From Candidatus Omnitrophota bacterium (lineage in GTDB: Bacteria; Omnitrophota; Gorgyraeia; Gygaellales; Profunditerraquicolaceae): a stretch of 64,000 nucleotides of DNA. Below, piece by piece: positions 3,744-48,607 of the stretch. Below the pieces are notes generated by a model that worked only from the letters and a program-made list of their open reading frames with translations, did not search any database and was not told where the DNA came from. Both the position numbers and the translations under genes were made by a program. Every line of letters starts with the position of its first letter. Within the stretch, counting starts at the first letter, position 1. Location: positions 14,067 to 78,066 of the forward strand of contig JAQUPI010000002.1 of assembly GCA_028716705.1 (NCBI GenBank), in the 5' to 3' direction.

Positions 3744-5092
3744 TTAATCGCCTGCATCATGCCTTTTGCCTTCACCAGCGTCTCCCGGTATTCTTCCTCC
3801 GGCTTAGAATCCGCGACAATGCCTCCCCCGACCCCAAAATACAGCTCTTTGTCTTTCTTTAATATAGTGCGGATTAAAATGTTTAAATCCATGCCTCCGG
3901 AAAAACTAAGGTAGCCGAGACTGCCTGTATAAATGGAGCGCCGGCGGGTCTCCAGTTCGTCGATAATCTCCATCGCGCGGATCTTGGGGCATCCAGTAAT
4001 GGAGCCTCCCGGGAAGCAGGCGCGGATCAGGTCAACCCTGTCCTGATTTTTATGCAGGCATCCGTAAACGGTAGCCGTGGTCTGAAAAACGGTGGAATAT
4101 TTTTCGAGCTGCCGCAGCCTGCTTACCTTTATGGAATCATAACTGCATACCCTGCCCAGGTCATTCCTCTCTAAATCCACGATCATCATCAACTCCGCCT
4201 TGTCCTTTGCGCTGGCAATTAGATCCTCCTTCAGCTTTATATCAAGGGCTTTATTCTTCGAACGGGGGCGCGTGCCTTTCATCGGCCGGGTCGTGACCCT
4301 GCCTCTCTCCAATCTTAAGAAAGCTTCCGGCGATGAGCTCAGGATCTGATAATCCCCGTAATCAATATAGGCGCCGAAACAGGAGGGGCTGAATTTTCTC
4401 AGCCGTTTATAGATCTGGGGCGCACTCAAGTCGGTTCGGGCACGAAATACCTGGGCGAGGTTTACTTGATAGATATCTCCTTTTTTGATGTACTCCTTTG
4501 CGCGCCTGACTGCCGCCATATATGCTTCTTTGGTGAAATTTGATTCCGCGGACGCGCCAACATTGACGGATTTATCTTTGAGGCTATTTTGGCTCGAGGC
4601 CGCCTCGCTAAGAAGCTTCTGTATTTTCCTGAAATTTCTCCGGCAGAGCGCTTTTTGCAGGCGATAATCTTTTTCAGGAAAGCCCGCGGCGAATATATAT
4701 AGCAGCTTTTTAAGATGGTCAATGGCGATCATGGTGTTATAAAATCCAAAAGAAAAATCGGGAACGGGGTTTTTGGGCCTTTGCCTGTTCTTAAATTTCT
4801 TTTCCAAGGCGAAACCCAGATCATAGGCTAAATGCCCGACTGCCCCTCCCAAAAAAGGAGGGGCGTTTCCGGTCAACGTAATTTTGTAGCGGTCTAAATT
4901 TTTTCTCAGTTCAGGCAAAGGGTCATCTCTCCCGGACTCTAAAACATAAAAAGGGTCCGCCCCCAGGAAAGAATACCGGCCCGGATAGAGGCTGCTATCC
5001 AGGAAAAAACACCGTTTTTGCCCTGCGAATGCGCCGAATATCCTCATCGGCTCCAAATTCAGTTTATATGATTTCAAAATGTAATATGCCAT
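3740..5092 (-). CDS. pabB: Aminodeoxychorismate (or anthranilate) synthase component I
   Basis: 450 aa chorismate-binding enzyme with the C-terminal GVGGGIVADSKPEEEYRETLVKA signature. Paired with the class-IV aminotransferase as pabB-pabC. The start may be the internal Met at ~5047. Confidence 0.7.
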   Translation of the reverse strand: MAYYILKSYKLNLEPMRIFGAFAGQKRCFFLDSSLYPGRYSFLGADPFYVLESGRDDPLPELRKNLDRYKITLTGNAPPFLGGAVGHLAYDLGFALEKKFKNRQRPKNPVPDFSFGFYNTMIAIDHLKKLLYIFAAGFPEKDYRLQKALCRRNFRKIQKLLSEAASSQNSLKDKSVNVGASAESNFTKEAYMAAVRRAKEYIKKGDIYQVNLAQVFRARTDLSAPQIYKRLRKFSPSCFGAYIDYGDYQILSSSPEAFLRLERGRVTTRPMKGTRPRSKNKALDIKLKEDLIASAKDKAELMMIVDLERNDLGRVCSYDSIKVSRLRQLEKYSTVFQTTATVYGCLHKNQDRVDLIRACFPGGSITGCPKIRAMEIIDELETRRRSIYTGSLGYLSFSGGMDLNILIRTILKKDKELYFGVGGGIVADSKPEEEYRETLVKAKGMMQAIK

Positions 5093-43242: not shown

Positions 43243-44067
43243 ATGAACAGCATGACCGGTTTTGCCAGTAAGGAATTGGCCGCGAGGCCTTTCGGAAAGA
43301 TTTTCCTGGAAATTCGCAGCACCAACCACAAATTTTTGGAAGTGGTTTTCCATCTGCCCGTCGGCCTTTTGGCTTTAGAGGATAAGATAAAAAAGGAGAT
43401 AGAGGGGAAGTTCAAGAGGGGCAGGATCGTATGCGTGATGAACATACAGGCCAGCCGGTCTAACAAAATCTTCATCGATAAGCCTCTTCTAAGGCATTAT
43501 GTTTCCGCGTTGCGCGCCATAAGCAGGGAAAGCCGGTTAAATGAAGATATAAGCCTGAACACATTGGTTAATTTGCCGGGCGTGTTGTCTCTTGTGGAAG
43601 ACAGGCGCAGGGAGAGCAAGCTTTGGCCTCATCTTAAAGACCTGCTCGACCGTACACTCGCTGACCTTTCGGCTATGCGCCGTAAGGAAGGAGAGGCGCT
43701 ATGCGTTTATTTCAAAAAGGGCGCTAAGGGGCTTACGGAAGACTTGAATAGCGTGAAAGAAAAATTCAAAAAAATGGTCAAGGAGAAGCTGAAGGAGCTT
43801 GCTACTGCGGAAGAACGCTGCAGCTTTCTCAAGGATTCGGATATAACTGAGGAAGTCGAGCGTTTAAGTTTCCACATCAAGAATTTCAAAGACAAGCTCT
43901 CAAAGGCAGGGGCGATAGGGAAGGAGCTGGATTTTATCGCGCAGGAGATGCAGCGCGAGGCAAATACCATGGGCGCTAAATCCGTGGATGTGTCGATATC
44001 CGCCAAGGTCGTACAGATAAAAAGCCAGGTGGAAAAAATCAGGGAGCAATTGCAGAATATAGAGTGA
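43243..44067 (+). CDS. yicC: YicC-family stress-induced protein
   Basis: 274 aa with an SMTGF start and the EIRSTNHKFLE motif. Confidence 0.8.
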   Translation: MNSMTGFASKELAARPFGKIFLEIRSTNHKFLEVVFHLPVGLLALEDKIKKEIEGKFKRGRIVCVMNIQASRSNKIFIDKPLLRHYVSALRAISRESRLNEDISLNTLVNLPGVLSLVEDRRRESKLWPHLKDLLDRTLADLSAMRRKEGEALCVYFKKGAKGLTEDLNSVKEKFKKMVKEKLKELATAEERCSFLKDSDITEEVERLSFHIKNFKDKLSKAGAIGKELDFIAQEMQREANTMGAKSVDVSISAKVVQIKSQVEKIREQLQNIE

Positions 44068-44714
44068 AGCCAAGACACAAGTCACAAGTCACAAGTCACA
44101 AGGCGAATGGGATAATATTCATAATTTGCGGGCCTTCGGGTTCGGGTAAGACGACGCTGGCAAGGAACCTGCTGGCCGATAAAAGCTTGAAAGGCAAATT
44201 AAACCGGCCCATCTCCCTGACCACACGGCCGAAAAGGTCCGGAGAGAAAGATAAAAAAGATTATTTTTTCGTCAGCGAAGAGCGGTTTAATGAGCAGAAA
44301 AAAAGAAAAAAGATCCTCGAGTGGACCAAATACCTCGGCTATTATTACGCCACGCCAAGGGATTTTATCGAGGGGCGGCTGGAAAAAGGAAAGAACATTA
44401 TCCTTTGCCTGGACCTGAAGGGCGCCGCCACAATAAAGCGGCTTTACCCAAAAAATACGGTAATATTTTTTGTTATGCCGCCGTCGATAGATGCGCTTTT
44501 ACACCGGATCACGAACAGGTGCAATAAGACCCGGGAGAAAGAAATAAGACAGCGCCTGGAGCTGGCGCGCAGGGAGCTTAGGGTCTGCCGCAGGTATGAT
44601 TATTGCATAGTGAATAAAGACCTGGAAAAAGCGACGGAAAAGTTAAGGGGTATTATATTAAAAAAGATCGGAGAAAAAGATGCCATACGTAGCGCTGGAA
44701 AAACTGCTGGATAA
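44064..44714 (+). CDS. gmk: Guanylate kinase
   Basis: P-loop CGPSGSGKTT. The GTG start at 44064 is the only in-frame start. The N-terminal extension HKSQVTSHK is encoded by a (CACAAGT)x3 repeat. Confidence 0.85.
   Translation: MKPRHKSQVTSHKANGIIFIICGPSGSGKTTLARNLLADKSLKGKLNRPISLTTRPKRSGEKDKKDYFFVSEERFNEQKKRKKILEWTKYLGYYYATPRDFIEGRLEKGKNIILCLDLKGAATIKRLYPKNTVIFFVMPPSIDALLHRITNRCNKTREKEIRQRLELARRELRVCRRYDYCIVNKDLEKATEKLRGIILKKIGEKDAIRSAGKTAG
44071..44103 (+). repeat. GTCACAA heptamer tandem repeat, locus 1
   Basis: caagacacaagtcacaagtcacaagtcacaagg, immediately after the yicC stop and inside the first codons of gmk. Confidence 0.7.
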
Positions 44715-44889
44715 AAGCGACTTCTCTATTTTTAAATTGGTCATCCTGGCCTCAAAAAGGTCGCTGGAGATCGCTGAGGGCCAGCCAAAGCTGGTAAATG
44801 TGGACCCTTCGTTTAAGCCGTCAACGGCGGCTCTTTATGAGATCGCCGAAGGCAAAATACGCTATAAGAAGCCAAAATCTGAAAAATAA
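44680..44889 (+). CDS. rpoZ: DNA-directed RNA polymerase subunit omega
   Basis: 69 aa with FKLVILASKRSLEI. The gmk-rpoZ linkage is canonical. Confidence 0.75.
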   Translation: MPYVALEKLLDKSDFSIFKLVILASKRSLEIAEGQPKLVNVDPSFKPSTAALYEIAEGKIRYKKPKSEK

Positions 44890-44891
44890 TC

Positions 44892-45434
44892 ATGGTTAGA
44901 GGGAAAAACATCGTCTTGGGAGTGACCGGGAGCGTGGCAATATATAAGGCATGCGATATTGTCCGGCGTTTGCAAGACCGCGGTTTTCAGGTAACGGTGG
45001 TCATGACGCGTGAAGCGGCGGAATTTATTAAACCCGCGCTTTTTCGAAGCCTTACCGGGAATAACGTTTTCTGCGGCCTTTTTGACACCCCCGAGGCCTG
45101 GGAGATAGAGCACGTTTCTCTTGCCGAAAAAGCGGACCTGCTTCTGGTCGCTCCGGCAACCGCTAATATAATAGCCAAGATCTCCTCGGGGATCTGCGAC
45201 GACCTTTTGAGTTGCGTTGCCTGCGCCACCAAGGCGCCTGTCTTGATCTGTCCGGCGATGAATAAGAATATGTTCAAGAACCGCATTACGCAGGATAACA
45301 TAAAGAAATTAAAGTCATTGGGATATAAGTTCGTGGAGCCGCGTGAGGGTAGGCTTGCCTGCGGCAGCGTCGGGATAGGCTGCTTGGCAGATGTAGAAAA
45401 TATAGTAGAGGAAGCGAAAAAAATTTTAAGCTGA
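44892..45434 (+). CDS. coaC: Phosphopantothenoylcysteine decarboxylase (stand-alone CoaC flavoprotein)
   Basis: 180 aa with NIVLGVTGSVAIYK and PAMNKNM motifs. No CoaB domain. Confidence 0.75.
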   Translation: MVRGKNIVLGVTGSVAIYKACDIVRRLQDRGFQVTVVMTREAAEFIKPALFRSLTGNNVFCGLFDTPEAWEIEHVSLAEKADLLLVAPATANIIAKISSGICDDLLSCVACATKAPVLICPAMNKNMFKNRITQDNIKKLKSLGYKFVEPREGRLACGSVGIGCLADVENIVEEAKKILS

Positions 45435-45438
45435 CTTT

Positions 45439-45513
45439 GGCGCGGTAGCCAAGTGGCAAGGCGACTGTCTGCAAAACAGTTATACAGCGGTTCGAATCCG
45501 CTCCGCGCCTCCA
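45439..45513 (+). tRNA. tRNA-Cys (GCA)
   Basis: GGCGCGGTAGCCAAGTGGCAAGGCGACTGTCTGCAAAACAGTTATACAGCGGTTCGAATCCGCTCCGCGCCTCCA. Anticodon loop CTGCAAA. Confidence 0.9.
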
Positions 45514-45520
45514 AATTTCG

Positions 45521-46297
45521 ATGCCGCAAAAAAGAAAAAAATTAAATATTGAGGGAACAAACCTTTGGTATTTGGTGGGGTTGATTACAAGTGACGGAAA
45601 TCTTTCAAAAGACGGAAGGCATGTCGACATAACAGCGAAAGATAGATATTTTTTACGGACCATAACAGCGAAGCTCGGATTGGCGAATAAAATCGGTATA
45701 AAGAATAAGGACACCTACAAAGAGGCGCACAGACTTCAAATCTCGAATAAAAATTTCTACGATTTTCTTTTGTCAATCGGCCTTAGACAAAATAAATCGT
45801 TGATTTTAGGCGCGTTACATGTTCCGAATCGATATTTTATGGATTTTTTAAGAGGGGTAATCGATGGCGACGGATGTATCCGCAACTGGATACATCCAAC
45901 CAATAGAAGGGAACAATGGAGCCTGAGGATATATTCTGGCTCGGAGAAGTTTATCAGCTGGCTAAGTGACGAAATAGCAGGATTATTAGAGGTTTTTGGC
46001 AAGATTTATAACAGCAGAGAAAATTTATGGGTATTAAAGTACGGCAAAATGGCCGCGAGAGAAATAATCAGAAGGTGTTATTATAAAAATTGTTTTGGCT
46101 TAAAAAGAAAGATAAAATTAGCTCGGGATTGCTGCAGATCGTATTCGGGTTGGACTCAAAGCAAAACGGTTGTTGATTGTTATCGCCGGGATGGCGAAAC
46201 TGGCAAACGCACGGGACTTAAAATCCCGCGGCCGCAAGGCCTTGTGGGTTCAATTCCCTCTCCCGGCACTTTTTGGGCTCATAGCTCAGTTGGTTAG
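45521..46297 (+). CDS. LAGLIDADG homing endonuclease (double-motif); 3' end reads through tRNA-Leu
   Basis: Motifs LVGLITSDGNL and LRGVIDGDGCI. The ORF starts 8 nt after tRNA-Cys. Its last ~110 nt overlap tRNA-Leu on the same strand, so the true C-terminus is uncertain. Confidence 0.6.
   Translation: MPQKRKKLNIEGTNLWYLVGLITSDGNLSKDGRHVDITAKDRYFLRTITAKLGLANKIGIKNKDTYKEAHRLQISNKNFYDFLLSIGLRQNKSLILGALHVPNRYFMDFLRGVIDGDGCIRNWIHPTNRREQWSLRIYSGSEKFISWLSDEIAGLLEVFGKIYNSRENLWVLKYGKMAAREIIRRCYYKNCFGLKRKIKLARDCCRSYSGWTQSKTVVDCYRRDGETGKRTGLKIPRPQGLVGSIPSPGTFWAHSSVG
46185..46268 (+). tRNA. tRNA-Leu (TAA), type II variable arm
   Basis: GCCGGGATGGCGAAACTGGCAAACGCACGGGACTTAAAATCCCGCGGCCGCAAGGCCTTGTGGGTTCAATTCCCTCTCCCGGCA. 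The anticodon loop is intact, so there is no intron. Confidence 0.9.
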
Positions 46298-46348
46298 AGC
46301 GTTGCGTTGACATCGCAAAGGTCTGAGGTCCGAATCCTCATGGGCCCA
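46275..46348 (+). tRNA. tRNA-Val (GAC)
   Basis: GGGCTCATAGCTCAGTTGGTTAGAGCGTTGCGTTGACATCGCAAAGGTCTGAGGTCCGAATCCTCATGGGCCCA. Anticodon loop TTGACAT. Confidence 0.85.
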
Positions 46349-46365
46349 TTTTAGCCGCAAAACAC

Positions 46366-48084
46366 ATGGATATAGATATTCTTAGGCATTCCTGCTCGCA
46401 TATTATGGCTGAGGCGGTCAAGGAGCTCTGGCCCGAGACCAAGTTAGGCATAGGGCCGTCCATCGAAGACGGGTTCTATTACGATTTCGACAAAAAAGAG
46501 CCACTTACCGACGAAGATTTGGCGGAGATCGAAAAAAAGATGAGCCAGATCATCGCTAAAGACGAGCCATTTACCCGGGAAGAACTCCCTAAAGATAAGG
46601 CGCTTAAGCTATTCGAGGGCTTGAGAGAGGATTACAAAGTGAGCCTTATCCGTGAGATTGCCGATGCGAACGTATCGGTGTACAGGACGGGCAAGGGTTT
46701 TACGGATCTGTGCCGCGGCCCGCATATCGAATCGACCGGGAAGATCAAGGCCTTCAAATTGCTGTCTGTTGCCGGGGCGTATTGGCATGGGATCGAAACC
46801 AATCCCATGCTGCAAAGGATTTACGGCACCTGCTTTGAAACAAAAAAAGAATTAGAAGAATACTTAAGGAATTTAGAAGAAGCGAAACTGCGCGACCACA
46901 GAAAATTGGGTCCGCAGCTGGAATACTTCGATATATATCATGAAGAGGCGGGGGCCGGGCTGGTTTTTTATCATCCCAAAGGCGCCCTGCTCAGGAAAAT
47001 AATAGAGGATTACGAAAAAGAGGAGCACCTGAAGCGCGGTTACGAGATCGTCATTACCCCGCATATAATGCAGGCGGAGCTTTGGAAAATATCCGGCCAC
47101 TACGATTATTACCGCGAGAATATGTACACTTTGAAGATAGAAGACAGGGAGTTTGTGCTCAAGCCGATGAATTGCCCCGGCCACATCCTGATCTATAAAT
47201 CCAAGACCAGGAGCTATAAGGAACTGCCTGTCAGGCTGTATGAACTTGGAACGGTTTATCGCCACGAAAAGGCCGGCGTCTTACACGGATTGCTGCGGGT
47301 GCGCGGCTTTACCCAGGATGACGCGCACATATTTTGCCTGCCGGAACAGGCAAAGCAAGAAATAAAATCGATTATTGACTTTGTTTTTGATACAATGAAG
47401 GTGTTCGGGTTTAGCGATGTAGGCATAGAATTAAGTACGCGCCCGGAAAAATATATTGGCAGCGATGAAGACTGGCGGATGGCTACCGCCGCCCTTGAGG
47501 AATCTTTGAAAGAGAAGGGGCTATCTTACGAGGTAAATCCCGGGGAAGGGGCGTTCTATGGCCCCAAGATCGACATAAAACTGAAGGATGCCTTAAGGCG
47601 CAGCTGGCAGTGCGCCACCATTCAGTGCGATTTCGCGCTCCCGAAGAGATTTGGCCTTTCGTATATCGACCAGGAAGGCAAAGAGCGGCAGCCGATCATG
47701 CTCCACCGCGTTTTATTGGGAAGCCTTGAGCGCTTTATGGGCGCCTTGATAGAGCAATATAAAGGCGCGCTGCCTGTTTGGCTGGCTCCCCAGCAGGCAT
47801 TGATAATTCCCATAAAGGATTCGGTGCACGAATACGCGCAGAAAGCAAGGTCTTCTTTGATGGATAAATTCATACGCGCCGATGTTGACAGCCGCAACGA
47901 GACGTTGAATAAAAGGATACGGCAGGCAGAGATAAACAAGGTACCTTACCTGCTGATAGTCGGCGAACGCGAGGCTGAACAGCAGACGGTTTCCGTAAGA
48001 AAAAGAGGGTCGGGGGATCTCGGTGCAATGACTATAGATGAATTCACAAAAACCATAGTGCAGGATATAAAAGACAAAAAATAA
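46366..48084 (+). CDS. thrS: Threonyl-tRNA synthetase (lacks the N-terminal TGS domain)
   Basis: 572 aa. Starts in the editing domain (HSCSHIM), followed by the class II core and a C-terminal anticodon-binding domain. Confidence 0.9.
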   Translation: MDIDILRHSCSHIMAEAVKELWPETKLGIGPSIEDGFYYDFDKKEPLTDEDLAEIEKKMSQIIAKDEPFTREELPKDKALKLFEGLREDYKVSLIREIADANVSVYRTGKGFTDLCRGPHIESTGKIKAFKLLSVAGAYWHGIETNPMLQRIYGTCFETKKELEEYLRNLEEAKLRDHRKLGPQLEYFDIYHEEAGAGLVFYHPKGALLRKIIEDYEKEEHLKRGYEIVITPHIMQAELWKISGHYDYYRENMYTLKIEDREFVLKPMNCPGHILIYKSKTRSYKELPVRLYELGTVYRHEKAGVLHGLLRVRGFTQDDAHIFCLPEQAKQEIKSIIDFVFDTMKVFGFSDVGIELSTRPEKYIGSDEDWRMATAALEESLKEKGLSYEVNPGEGAFYGPKIDIKLKDALRRSWQCATIQCDFALPKRFGLSYIDQEGKERQPIMLHRVLLGSLERFMGALIEQYKGALPVWLAPQQALIIPIKDSVHEYAQKARSSLMDKFIRADVDSRNETLNKRIRQAEINKVPYLLIVGEREAEQQTVSVRKRGSGDLGAMTIDEFTKTIVQDIKDKK

Positions 48085-48091
48085 GAAGGGG

Positions 48092-48607
48092 GTGGTTGCT
48101 ATAAAAAAATATATCCGCATAAATGAGAAGATACGCGTACCTCAAGTGCGCCTGGTAGGGCCGGATGGTAACCAGTTGGGCGTGGTACCGATACAAAACG
48201 CCATTGACATAGCCAACCAGCACGAATTGGACCTGGTTGAAGTCGCGCCCCAGGCGAGCCCTCCGGTATGCCGGATCATCGATTTCAGCAAGTTCAAATA
48301 TGACCAGGAGAAGAAGGAGCGGGAAGCCAAAAAACACCAGAGGCAATCCCGCCTTAAAGAGATACGCCTTAAACCGAATATAGATGATCATGATTACGAG
48401 ATCAAGGTGAAGCACGCGCTTGAATTTTTGAAAAAGAAAGACAAGGTCAAGGTGAGCCTGTTTTTTAGGGGCAGGCAGATGGAGCATTTGGACATAGGCA
48501 GGAAGATCCTGGATAAATTCATCACGGATGTGCGAAATGAAGGACAGGTGGAAAAAGAGCCCGTCCTGGAAGGCAGGATAATATCGTTTATGGTCGCGCC
48601 GAAATAA
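48092..48607 (+). CDS. infC: Translation initiation factor IF-3
   Basis: 171 aa. The track's start codon is GTG; IF-3 genes commonly use AUU or AUA starts and an ATA codon lies 3 codons downstream. Confidence 0.85.
   Translation: MVAIKKYIRINEKIRVPQVRLVGPDGNQLGVVPIQNAIDIANQHELDLVEVAPQASPPVCRIIDFSKFKYDQEKKEREAKKHQRQSRLKEIRLKPNIDDHDYEIKVKHALEFLKKKDKVKVSLFFRGRQMEHLDIGRKILDKFITDVRNEGQVEKEPVLEGRIISFMVAPK

Follow-up and report, generated by a model that had tools for sequence, protein, structure and literature searches.

The 64,000-nt window analyzed here (the whole stretch under study, from contig JAQUPI010000002.1 of Candidatus Omnitrophota assembly GCA_028716705.1) carries, within a cluster of tRNA genes, an open reading frame (ORF) that encodes a two-motif LAGLIDADG protein and lies between the genes for tRNA-Cys(GCA) and tRNA-Leu(UAA) (Table 1). 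The order gmk-rpoZ-coaC-tRNACys-(endonuclease gene)-tRNALeu-tRNAVal-thrS is conserved across Omnitrophota loci, and because tRNA-Cys is also followed, after 12 nt, by tRNA-Leu(UAA) in glyW-cysT-leuZ of E. coli, the endonuclease gene occupies an old and widespread spacer of tRNA operons. The three tRNAs of the window score 57-68 bits with Rfam (the gathering score for tRNA is 29 bits), and ARAGORN and Rfam agree that tRNA-Cys and tRNA-Leu(UAA) are both uninterrupted, including the trnL(UAA) intron site, as had been stated in an initial annotation of this DNA. The same annotation had the ORF beginning 8 nt after tRNA-Cys and running without a stop through tRNA-Leu, which holds; it overlooked tRNA-Val(GAC), the third gene, within which the stop lies. 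L001 (loci are referred to by L numbers), from an independent ENA assembly, is 99.58% identical to the window, with 60 differences over 14.2 kb, and shows zero differences across 45104-46507, which covers the whole Cys-ORF-Leu-Val block. At a rate of 0.42%, ~6 differences would be expected in this 1.4-kb block; a recent sweep, gene conversion or constraint are possible causes of its invariance.

The LAGLIDADG assignment of the initial annotation was borne out by a profile search, in which PF14528 (LAGLIDADG_3) matched the 258-aa ORF with 44.1 bits and its 219-aa core with 45.0 bits (Pfam cut-off 22.5). The best sequence matches in the PDB were I-Tsp061I (E value 7e-7) and then an I-DmoI chimera. 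An AlphaFold2 (AF2) model based on an alignment with 34 homologues had a predicted local distance difference test score (pLDDT) of 79 and a predicted TM-score (pTM) of 0.77, was confident over residues 4-219, and displayed the order of helices and strands expected for two alpha-beta-beta-alpha-beta-beta-alpha domains packed via their motif helices. When the model was compared with the PDB by Foldseek, I-Tsp061I was the first match (1.6e-11, target TM-score 0.73), followed by I-AniI, WhiA, I-DmoI (6.5e-9) and the bI3 maturase. Single-chain LAGLIDADG enzymes are recognized by two motifs with a conserved acidic residue at the eighth position of each, and the ORF has both, LVGLITSDG (D25) and LRGVIDGDG (D117), the two aspartates being invariant in the 34 homologues. 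The alignment contains 56 invariant columns, among them D25, G26, D115, D117 and G118, and the window protein retains every family-invariant residue. Pfam detected neither a helix-turn-helix (HTH) or other extra domain in the ORF or its 219-aa core, nor an intein context for the ORF. A permissive Rfam scan of 44800-47000 and a gathering-score scan of the whole window yielded tRNAs only, with no group I or group II intron or other RNA, and since no intron or other RNA family is detectable, the gene is free-standing. The sequence and the predicted structure together indicate that the ORF is a genuine free-standing gene for a monomeric, two-motif LAGLIDADG enzyme of the I-Tsp061I/I-DmoI fold. Residues 186-216 (46076-46168) form a strongly conserved Cys-rich C-terminal segment, CYYxxCFGLxRKIKLAxxC...GWxKSKTV, in which C186 and C204 are invariant and C191 nearly so; the segment is missing from I-DmoI and I-Tsp061I, and it could bind a metal or serve as an additional DNA-binding element.

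Table 1. The endonuclease gene, the tRNA genes around it and the flanking host genes (positions in the window).
Feature	Position	Strand	Basis and remarks
CoaC-like flavoprotein gene (PF02441), upstream host flank	44892..45434	+	3' end 4 nt short of tRNA-Cys
tRNA-Cys(GCA), intact, CCA end encoded	45439..45513	+	ARAGORN; Rfam 68.4 bits
Spacer from tRNA-Cys to ATG, 7 nt, A/U-rich (aaatttc g), without Shine-Dalgarno motif	45514..45520	+	Sequence
Endonuclease ORF, ATG start, 258 aa	45521..46297	+	ORF call
Core LAGLIDADG homing-endonuclease ORF, residues 1-219, the full length of normal family members	45521..46177	+	Pfam, family alignment, AF2, Foldseek
LAGLIDADG motif 1, LVGLITSDGNL, residues 18-28; catalytic-position Asp25 family-invariant	45572..45604	+	ORF translation, alignment
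LAGLIDADG motif 2, LRGVIDGDGCI, residues 110-120; Asp117 family-invariant	45848..45880	+	ORF translation, alignment
Junction that holds the stop codon in relatives	46166..46184	+	L028, GTTGTTAATTAA; window, GTTGTTGATTGTTATC
C-terminal tail, 39 codons and stop	46178..46297	+	From spacer, entire tRNA-Leu, 4-nt spacer and first 24 nt of tRNA-Val
tRNA-Leu(UAA), intact, invariant partner of the endonuclease gene across phyla	46185..46269	+	ARAGORN; Rfam 57.2 bits
tRNA-Val(GAC), intact, contains the TAG stop of the ORF (46295-46297)	46274..46349	+	ARAGORN; Rfam
thrS (threonyl-tRNA synthetase), downstream host flank	46366..48084	+	ORF call

A protein search returned 597 homologues, the top 120 of which share 52-71% identity, are mostly 219-222 aa long and are labelled Candidatus Omnitrophota where named; the database records call these proteins only "LAGLIDADG family homing endonuclease" or hypothetical protein. 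A profile search of 1.84 billion cluster representatives gave 140 clusters at E <= 1e-30, and in a scan of GTDB with one genome per species, at least 158 species of Omnitrophota, Patescibacteria and Elusimicrobia were found to encode a ~219-aa homologue. The best 80 of these 158 loci, which were examined, come from Omnitrophota (including metagenome-assembled genomes (MAGs) labelled Planctomycetia), Patescibacteria, Elusimicrobia and a small number of MAGs with odd labels. A co-directional tRNA-Leu(UAA) gene lies directly 3' of the endonuclease gene in 79 of the 80, that is, at every locus with downstream sequence; the exception is L065, whose contig breaks off inside a tRNA-Leu, in its first 28 nt. 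The other neighbours vary, with tRNA-Cys, -Val, -Thr or none upstream, and tRNA-Val, -Tyr, -Arg or none downstream of tRNA-Leu. The adjacency of the endonuclease gene and tRNA-Leu(UAA) is thus far beyond chance. In the literature searched, on LAGLIDADG genes with tRNA-Leu, free-standing LAGLIDADG genes, Omnitrophota and Patescibacteria, we found no account of LAGLIDADG genes that form a family linked to trnL(UAA), nor does a 2026 survey of Patescibacteria tRNA introns mention one; by these searches the trnL(UAA)-linked family is previously undescribed, and it is widespread over several phyla of very small, uncultured bacteria.

Several features of individual copies were recorded in the course of this comparison. 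In five database proteins (P0035, P0049, P0064, P0106 and P0114) the N-terminal extension is translated tRNA-Cys (e.g. MVRQLSAKQLFSGSIPLVAS), a gene-caller artefact, and in some database homologues a C-terminal extension is translated tRNA-Leu, i.e. real read-through. The copy at L038:4001-4822 (P0094) has a 55-aa in-frame insertion following the conserved KYGKMAAKEI segment. The Patescibacteria-type copies L058-L081 open with ATG GTT GAC TTA AAA (TC), which repeats the anticodon stem-loop of tRNA-Leu(UAA), GACTTAAAATC, and the start region of L059 is able to form a 6-bp hairpin around this anticodon-stem-loop-like sequence. Such a start may be a coding coincidence (M-V-D-L-K), or it may be what is left of a target or insertion site.

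The distribution of the gene was assessed in a sample blind to the endonuclease, namely metagenome contigs retrieved with a coaC alignment; the counts refer to the matches listed. Among these, 11 syntenic contigs are empty, i.e. lack the endonuclease gene (L082, L083, L085, L086, L087, L089, L093, L096, L097, L110 and L113), and one is occupied (L108); among genomes that otherwise share the synteny, those with the endonuclease/trnL(UAA) module are the minority. The empty Cys-Leu spacers span 10-321 nt, and neither a hidden Markov model (HMM) search nor blastn detected a significant endonuclease remnant in 12 such spacers of up to 321 nt. Empty and occupied loci can belong to close relatives: the coaC distance between the empty L089 and the occupied L009, L037 and L039 is 0.11-0.15, and L089 and the occupied L004 have tRNA-Cys genes that are 100% and tRNA-Val genes that are 99% identical. 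Across 45 loci, endonuclease distances correlated only moderately with those of threonyl-tRNA synthetase (ThrRS), and the slope was shallow (Mantel r = 0.48; 0 of 2000 permutations). The gene and its tRNA-Leu appear to have been swapped as a module between close hosts, as seen in L033 and L048, in which ThrRS (91%), CoaC (90%) and tRNA-Val (100%) are nearly the same, yet the endonucleases are only 58% and the tRNA-Leu genes only 68% identical. Conversely, the endonucleases of L013 and L020 are 81% identical, yet ThrRS and CoaC share 75% and 69%. Decay was also observed, in that the L072 copy has lost motif 1 through a ~255-nt internal deletion and the L077 copy is broken. These comparisons indicate that the gene, being patchy, exchanged and decaying, is a mobile dispensable element and not a lineage-wide host gene.

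Resident tRNA-Leu genes have been disrupted at occupied loci. In L005, L007, L013, L021, L025, L033 and L045, 5' fragments of tRNA-Leu (to positions 20-28) abut the endonuclease ATG, and in L007, L013 and L025 the D-loop ATG of the fragment is itself the start codon, the proteins beginning with MA-. The most common allele of endonuclease-less loci (GGGCAAGTGGTGGAATGGCA...) matches several of the 5' fragments with 100% identity; the intact downstream tRNA-Leu is a different allele. The endonucleases at these loci are not each other's closest relatives, and the scars therefore point to independent events. Remnants of the 3' part of a resident tRNA-Leu occur just after the linked tRNA-Leu in L039 (positions 59-83) and L011 (positions 56-84), the former matching the allele of the empty relative L089 at 25 of 25 positions. 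In an Elusimicrobia MAG (L071:4627-4659), a tRNA-Leu fragment of Omnitrophota type that comprises positions 1-33 and breaks off in the anticodon loop lies directly 3' of the endonuclease gene, and the host's own tRNA-Leu follows 90 nt downstream of this foreign-type fragment, which is a footprint of transfer between phyla. Over all these scars the breakpoints lie at tRNA-Leu positions 20-33 and 56-59. An element limited to tRNA-Leu positions 1-24 that would rebuild the tRNA upon insertion was considered and rejected, as in L013 the 3' acceptor strand of the linked tRNA agrees with the 5' strand that came in and not with that of the resident gene.

The flanking tRNA genes are marked as well. 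Fragments of 17-18 nt from the 3' end of tRNA-Cys lie just 5' of the endonuclease gene where the intact tRNA-Cys sits 100-200 nt farther upstream, and 5' tRNA-Val fragments of 15-17 nt directly follow tRNA-Leu at module edges; both mark recombination joints in the flanking tRNAs. L006 has two consecutive 16-nt 5' tRNA-Val fragments of different alleles (4770-4785 and 4880-4895) ahead of the intact tRNA-Val, each followed by a hairpin-rich spacer of ~100 nt, a pattern that suggests successive insertion or recombination events at one joint. The endonuclease-less Cys-Leu spacer of L130 (5588-5763) holds a second 3' tRNA-Cys fragment of another allele, which could have been left behind by an earlier insertion that has since been lost. 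A second element of endonuclease type is present between tRNA-Leu and tRNA-Val in L039 (4880-6362; a Bro-N ORF, PF02498, 5e-14, and an HNH ORF, PF01844/PF14279) and in L011 (4818-5732; an HNH-motif ORF and Bro-N-like fragments), and insertions borne by nucleases seem to favor this tRNA cluster as a hotspot.

Next to the endonuclease gene, tRNA-Leu is unusually variable, as shown by pairs of loci with an identity of at least 90% in tRNA-Cys as well as in tRNA-Val. In such pairs the identity of tRNA-Leu was 0.92-0.94 between empty loci (n=2), and averaged 0.77 between occupied loci (n=39) and 0.72 between occupied and empty loci (n=22). The common D-arm allele TGGTGGAATGGCATACACG was present in 6 of 12 empty and 1 of 64 occupied loci (p = 2.7e-5 by Fisher's test, in which phylogeny is ignored).

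By analogy with SegB of phage T4, the gene is probably a free-standing LAGLIDADG homing endonuclease that is linked to trnL(UAA) and spreads by intronless homing, a reading that we favor with moderate confidence. The endonuclease gene and the adjacent trnL(UAA) would constitute a selfish module that passes from lineage to lineage, the resident trnL(UAA) being replaced or disrupted by it. The enzyme would cut trnL(UAA) loci that lack the endonuclease, giving rise to breakpoints between tRNA positions ~20 and ~59, and the break would be repaired from an occupied copy, with the conserved neighboring tRNA genes or microhomology serving as joints. Repair would install the endonuclease gene together with the linked tRNA-Leu allele, which is presumed to be uncuttable. 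Tight linkage (a spacer of 0-15 nt) would keep the nuclease and the immune allele together, and we propose that the spacer has stayed minimal because parting the two would be self-destructive.

SegB provides the closest precedent. Its recognition site includes a conserved tRNA-gene motif, and it drives its own inheritance, carrying neighboring tRNA genes along while recipient markers are lost (PMC2330249). In both cases a free-standing endonuclease gene lies amid tRNA genes (PMC2330249), and, as is typical of Seg-type genes, the one described here is located between conserved genes outside any intron or intein and shows presence/absence polymorphism at the same site. SegB differs in having a GIY-YIG fold and in residing in a phage genome rather than in bacterial chromosomes; moreover, its activity and homing were demonstrated experimentally (PMC2330249), whereas here both are deduced from sequence. 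Unlike SegB, the present family is bound in several phyla to one and the same tRNA gene, with which its ORF often overlaps. I-Tsp061I (PDB 2dch) and I-DmoI (PDB 2vs7) share with the window protein the monomeric two-motif fold, a size of ~200 aa and the conserved acidic catalytic residues; however, the identity is only ~19-20%, the two enzymes are products of introns in archaeal rRNA genes and have rDNA as their target, whereas the window gene is free-standing, bacterial and tRNA-linked, and neither has the conserved Cys-rich segment (C186, C191, C204). The group I intron of trnL(UAA) in cyanobacteria and plastids, some bacterial copies of which contain endonuclease genes (PMC13011429), resides in the same host gene, but at the loci described here there is no ribozyme, the tRNA is uninterrupted and the gene lies outside it, on the 5' side. 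WhiA (PDB 3hyi) resembles the window protein as a LAGLIDADG fold encoded by a chromosomal bacterial gene that is neither intron- nor intein-borne; WhiA, however, has lost the catalytic residues, has a C-terminal HTH and is universal in its lineages, whereas the window protein keeps its Asp residues, has no HTH and is patchy.

Several observations weigh against homing as the explanation. Most copies are intact and diverge about as slowly as the neighboring housekeeping genes, which would also fit a host-beneficial role. The mean identity of the endonucleases is 0.58 within Omnitrophota and 0.47 between Omnitrophota and Patescibacteria, and because the copies group by phylum, movement across phyla must be rare or ancient. 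No phage or plasmid vector was found, and a scan of IMG/VR gave only two distant (27-34%) LAGLIDADG proteins. The sample of empty sites is small (12) and taxonomically narrow, and the allele statistics given above are uncorrected for phylogeny. When host distance was taken into account, tRNA-Leu alleles did not correlate significantly with the endonuclease tree (partial Mantel r = 0.03), nor did tRNA-Cys or tRNA-Val in the same test, and co-transfer of the tRNA is therefore claimed for particular loci only. Some empty and occupied loci have similar tRNA-Leu genes (L096/L056, 91%; L086/L017, 93%). The clustering of breakpoints between positions ~20 and ~59 may partly reflect which short remnants (15-33 nt) survive rather than the sites of cutting, and cleavage activity, the position of the target and the immunity of the linked allele are themselves read from sequence patterns, the breakpoint positions and the D-arm counts being indirect evidence for cutting near the insertion site and for immunity.

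One alternative to homing is that the protein has been domesticated by the host, either as a WhiA-like regulator or as a factor that serves the tRNA operon by binding RNA or in the manner of a maturase, and is inherited vertically, its position reflecting co-expression. A phylum-wide domesticated gene was what we first suspected from the 60-70% identity and the conserved synteny, and this view was abandoned because the coaC-based sample consists mostly of empty sites. The intactness of most copies, the 56 invariant columns, a divergence similar to that of coaC and gmk, the significant correlation with host distance (Mantel r = 0.48, 0 of 2000 permutations), the clustering of endonucleases by phylum and the presence of WhiA and LAGLIDADG maturases among the structural neighbors all speak for a domesticated protein. 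Nevertheless, the gene is absent from 11 of the 12 syntenic relatives sampled blind to it, it is deleted in part in L072 and broken in L077, close hosts have very different copies, and resident tRNA genes have been disrupted; in addition, both catalytic-position Asp residues are invariant, unlike those of WhiA, and there is no HTH or added domain. We consider domestication unlikely. Far less probable still is that the gene is the relic of an intron in trnL(UAA) or another RNA, an intron that would have contained the endonuclease gene before its loss or rearrangement. It is true that trnL(UAA) is the classical site of group I introns, that a Bacteroidota trnL(UAA) intron with an endonuclease gene exists (PMC13011429), that the closest solved structures are intron-encoded archaeal enzymes, and that Patescibacteria copies open with a sequence like the tRNA-Leu anticodon stem-loop. 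Neither the permissive nor the gathering Rfam scan detected a group I or II core, however, tRNA-Leu is intact in the window and at all related loci with downstream sequence, and at no locus does the gene lie within the tRNA, its place being invariably 5' of it. Among the origins put forward in the initial annotation, that of a lost-intron remnant was dropped because the Rfam scans gave tRNAs only, and the related copies examined are all free-standing at the same position. The other two origins agree with what was found, a free-standing endonuclease in that no intron core exists and related copies stand beside an intact trnL(UAA), and a mobile insertion into a tRNA cluster in that syntenic relatives have empty sites and tRNA fragments mark the scars.

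The window copy is unusual in its 3' end. Normal family members terminate 2-5 residues past the conserved GWxKSKTV, whereas the window protein extends 39 residues more, the first in-frame stop (TAG, 46295-46297) being inside tRNA-Val(GAC), past all of tRNA-Leu. Comparison of the junction of L028 (GTT GTT AAT TAA) with that of the window (GTT GTT GAT TGT TAT C) indicates that the stop was removed by substitutions and a ~4-nt deletion, and that the window copy is a stop-loss variant. Residues 220-258, the tail derived from tRNA sequence, are predicted to be disordered (pLDDT < 50). In 53 of the 78 full-length copies the stop precedes the tRNA, with a median gap of 8 nt (0-15 nt in 51); in 15 it lies inside tRNA-Leu, three times exactly at the TAA anticodon, and in 10, including the window copy, the ORF reads through the whole tRNA-Leu. 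About a third of the family (25 of 78) shares the stop-less state, which must hence be at least tolerated. The nearest GTDB relative, L072, is likewise stop-less, with a junction sequence different from that of the window, and because it also carries a deleted gene, the lineage of the window copy may be in a post-invasion phase of decay. Counts of promoter and terminator signals over 43800-48300 were at the level of shuffled sequence and thus uninformative, as is the missing Shine-Dalgarno motif before the ORF, since such motifs are rare in this genome (16 of 54 ORFs). The endonuclease gene is presumably co-transcribed with the tRNAs, its own promoter not being detectable above the shuffle level. 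Ribosomes on the window message would either read via tRNA-Leu into tRNA-Val, adding the 39-aa disordered tail, or stall on a non-stop mRNA truncated by RNase P, which would then be handled by ribosome rescue.

As proposed in the initial annotation, the stop-less layout could be viewed as a brake on expression, here taken as an evolved one, in which the RNase P cut generates a non-stop mRNA and the product, tagged through transfer-messenger RNA (tmRNA), is degraded, so that a toxic nuclease is kept at a very low level. The 25 of 78 family members without a stop before the tRNA lend this some plausibility, as do the 9 of 12 Patescibacteria-labelled copies that overlap the tRNA and the identical stop-less sequence in the independent assembly. 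Furthermore, in 51 of the 53 copies with a stop before the tRNA, that stop is within 15 nt of the RNase P site, and termination and tRNA 5' processing must therefore interfere even there. On the other hand, stop-less copies are scattered over the family with many tail lengths and frames, as repeated neutral loss predicts, and neutral tolerance of a tail that is predicted to be disordered accounts for the same data. That the stop-less closest relative, L072, carries a deleted and evidently defunct gene suggests relaxed selection in the window lineage. An evolved brake is, in our judgment, improbable. Another explanation of the missing stop, namely that the gene has the normal 219 codons and was misread or misassembled, might be thought of since the source is a metagenome assembly and the junction differs from those of relatives by a few bases only; it is scarcely credible, as the junction is identical in an independent assembly that differs at 60 other positions, L072 lacks the stop through a different junction sequence, and 24 further loci from unrelated studies are stop-less. 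L001 is identical across the Cys-ORF-Leu-Val block, and this argues against a read error and against the earlier stop that, according to the initial annotation, re-sequencing might uncover.

If the homing interpretation is correct, the family would be a chromosomal bacterial LAGLIDADG counterpart of the free-standing Seg and Mob endonucleases of T-even phages, with a universally conserved tRNA gene as its target. A bolder version of this interpretation invites comparison with Cleave-and-Rescue, a synthetic eukaryotic drive of the toxin-antidote type in which a nuclease destroys a resident essential gene and is linked to an uncuttable replacement. The logic is shared only if the homing model holds, and the resistance of the linked tRNA-Leu allele is presumed here. 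Tentatively, and with less confidence than we place in homing as such, the module can be regarded as a natural cleave-and-rescue element, whose nuclease would destroy the resident essential trnL(UAA) while traveling with a resistant tRNA-Leu, which would persist and move within, and occasionally between, Omnitrophota, Patescibacteria and Elusimicrobia, and in which the overlap of ORF and tRNA would couple expression to tRNA processing via a non-stop or nearly non-stop mRNA.

The frequent overlap of ORF and tRNA offers a testable interplay of translation termination, RNase P processing and ribosome rescue, and gene callers should be expected to yield spurious N-terminal (via tRNA-Cys) and real C-terminal (via tRNA-Leu) extensions in this family. 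Should the proposed mechanism be right, a compact meganuclease scaffold of ~219 aa would be available in hundreds of natural versions, each with its co-evolving target allele alongside, a data set for the evolution of specificity. It would also mean that selfish gene-conversion elements are active in the reduced genomes of Omnitrophota and Patescibacteria, and would account for the unusual variability of trnL(UAA) in these lineages.

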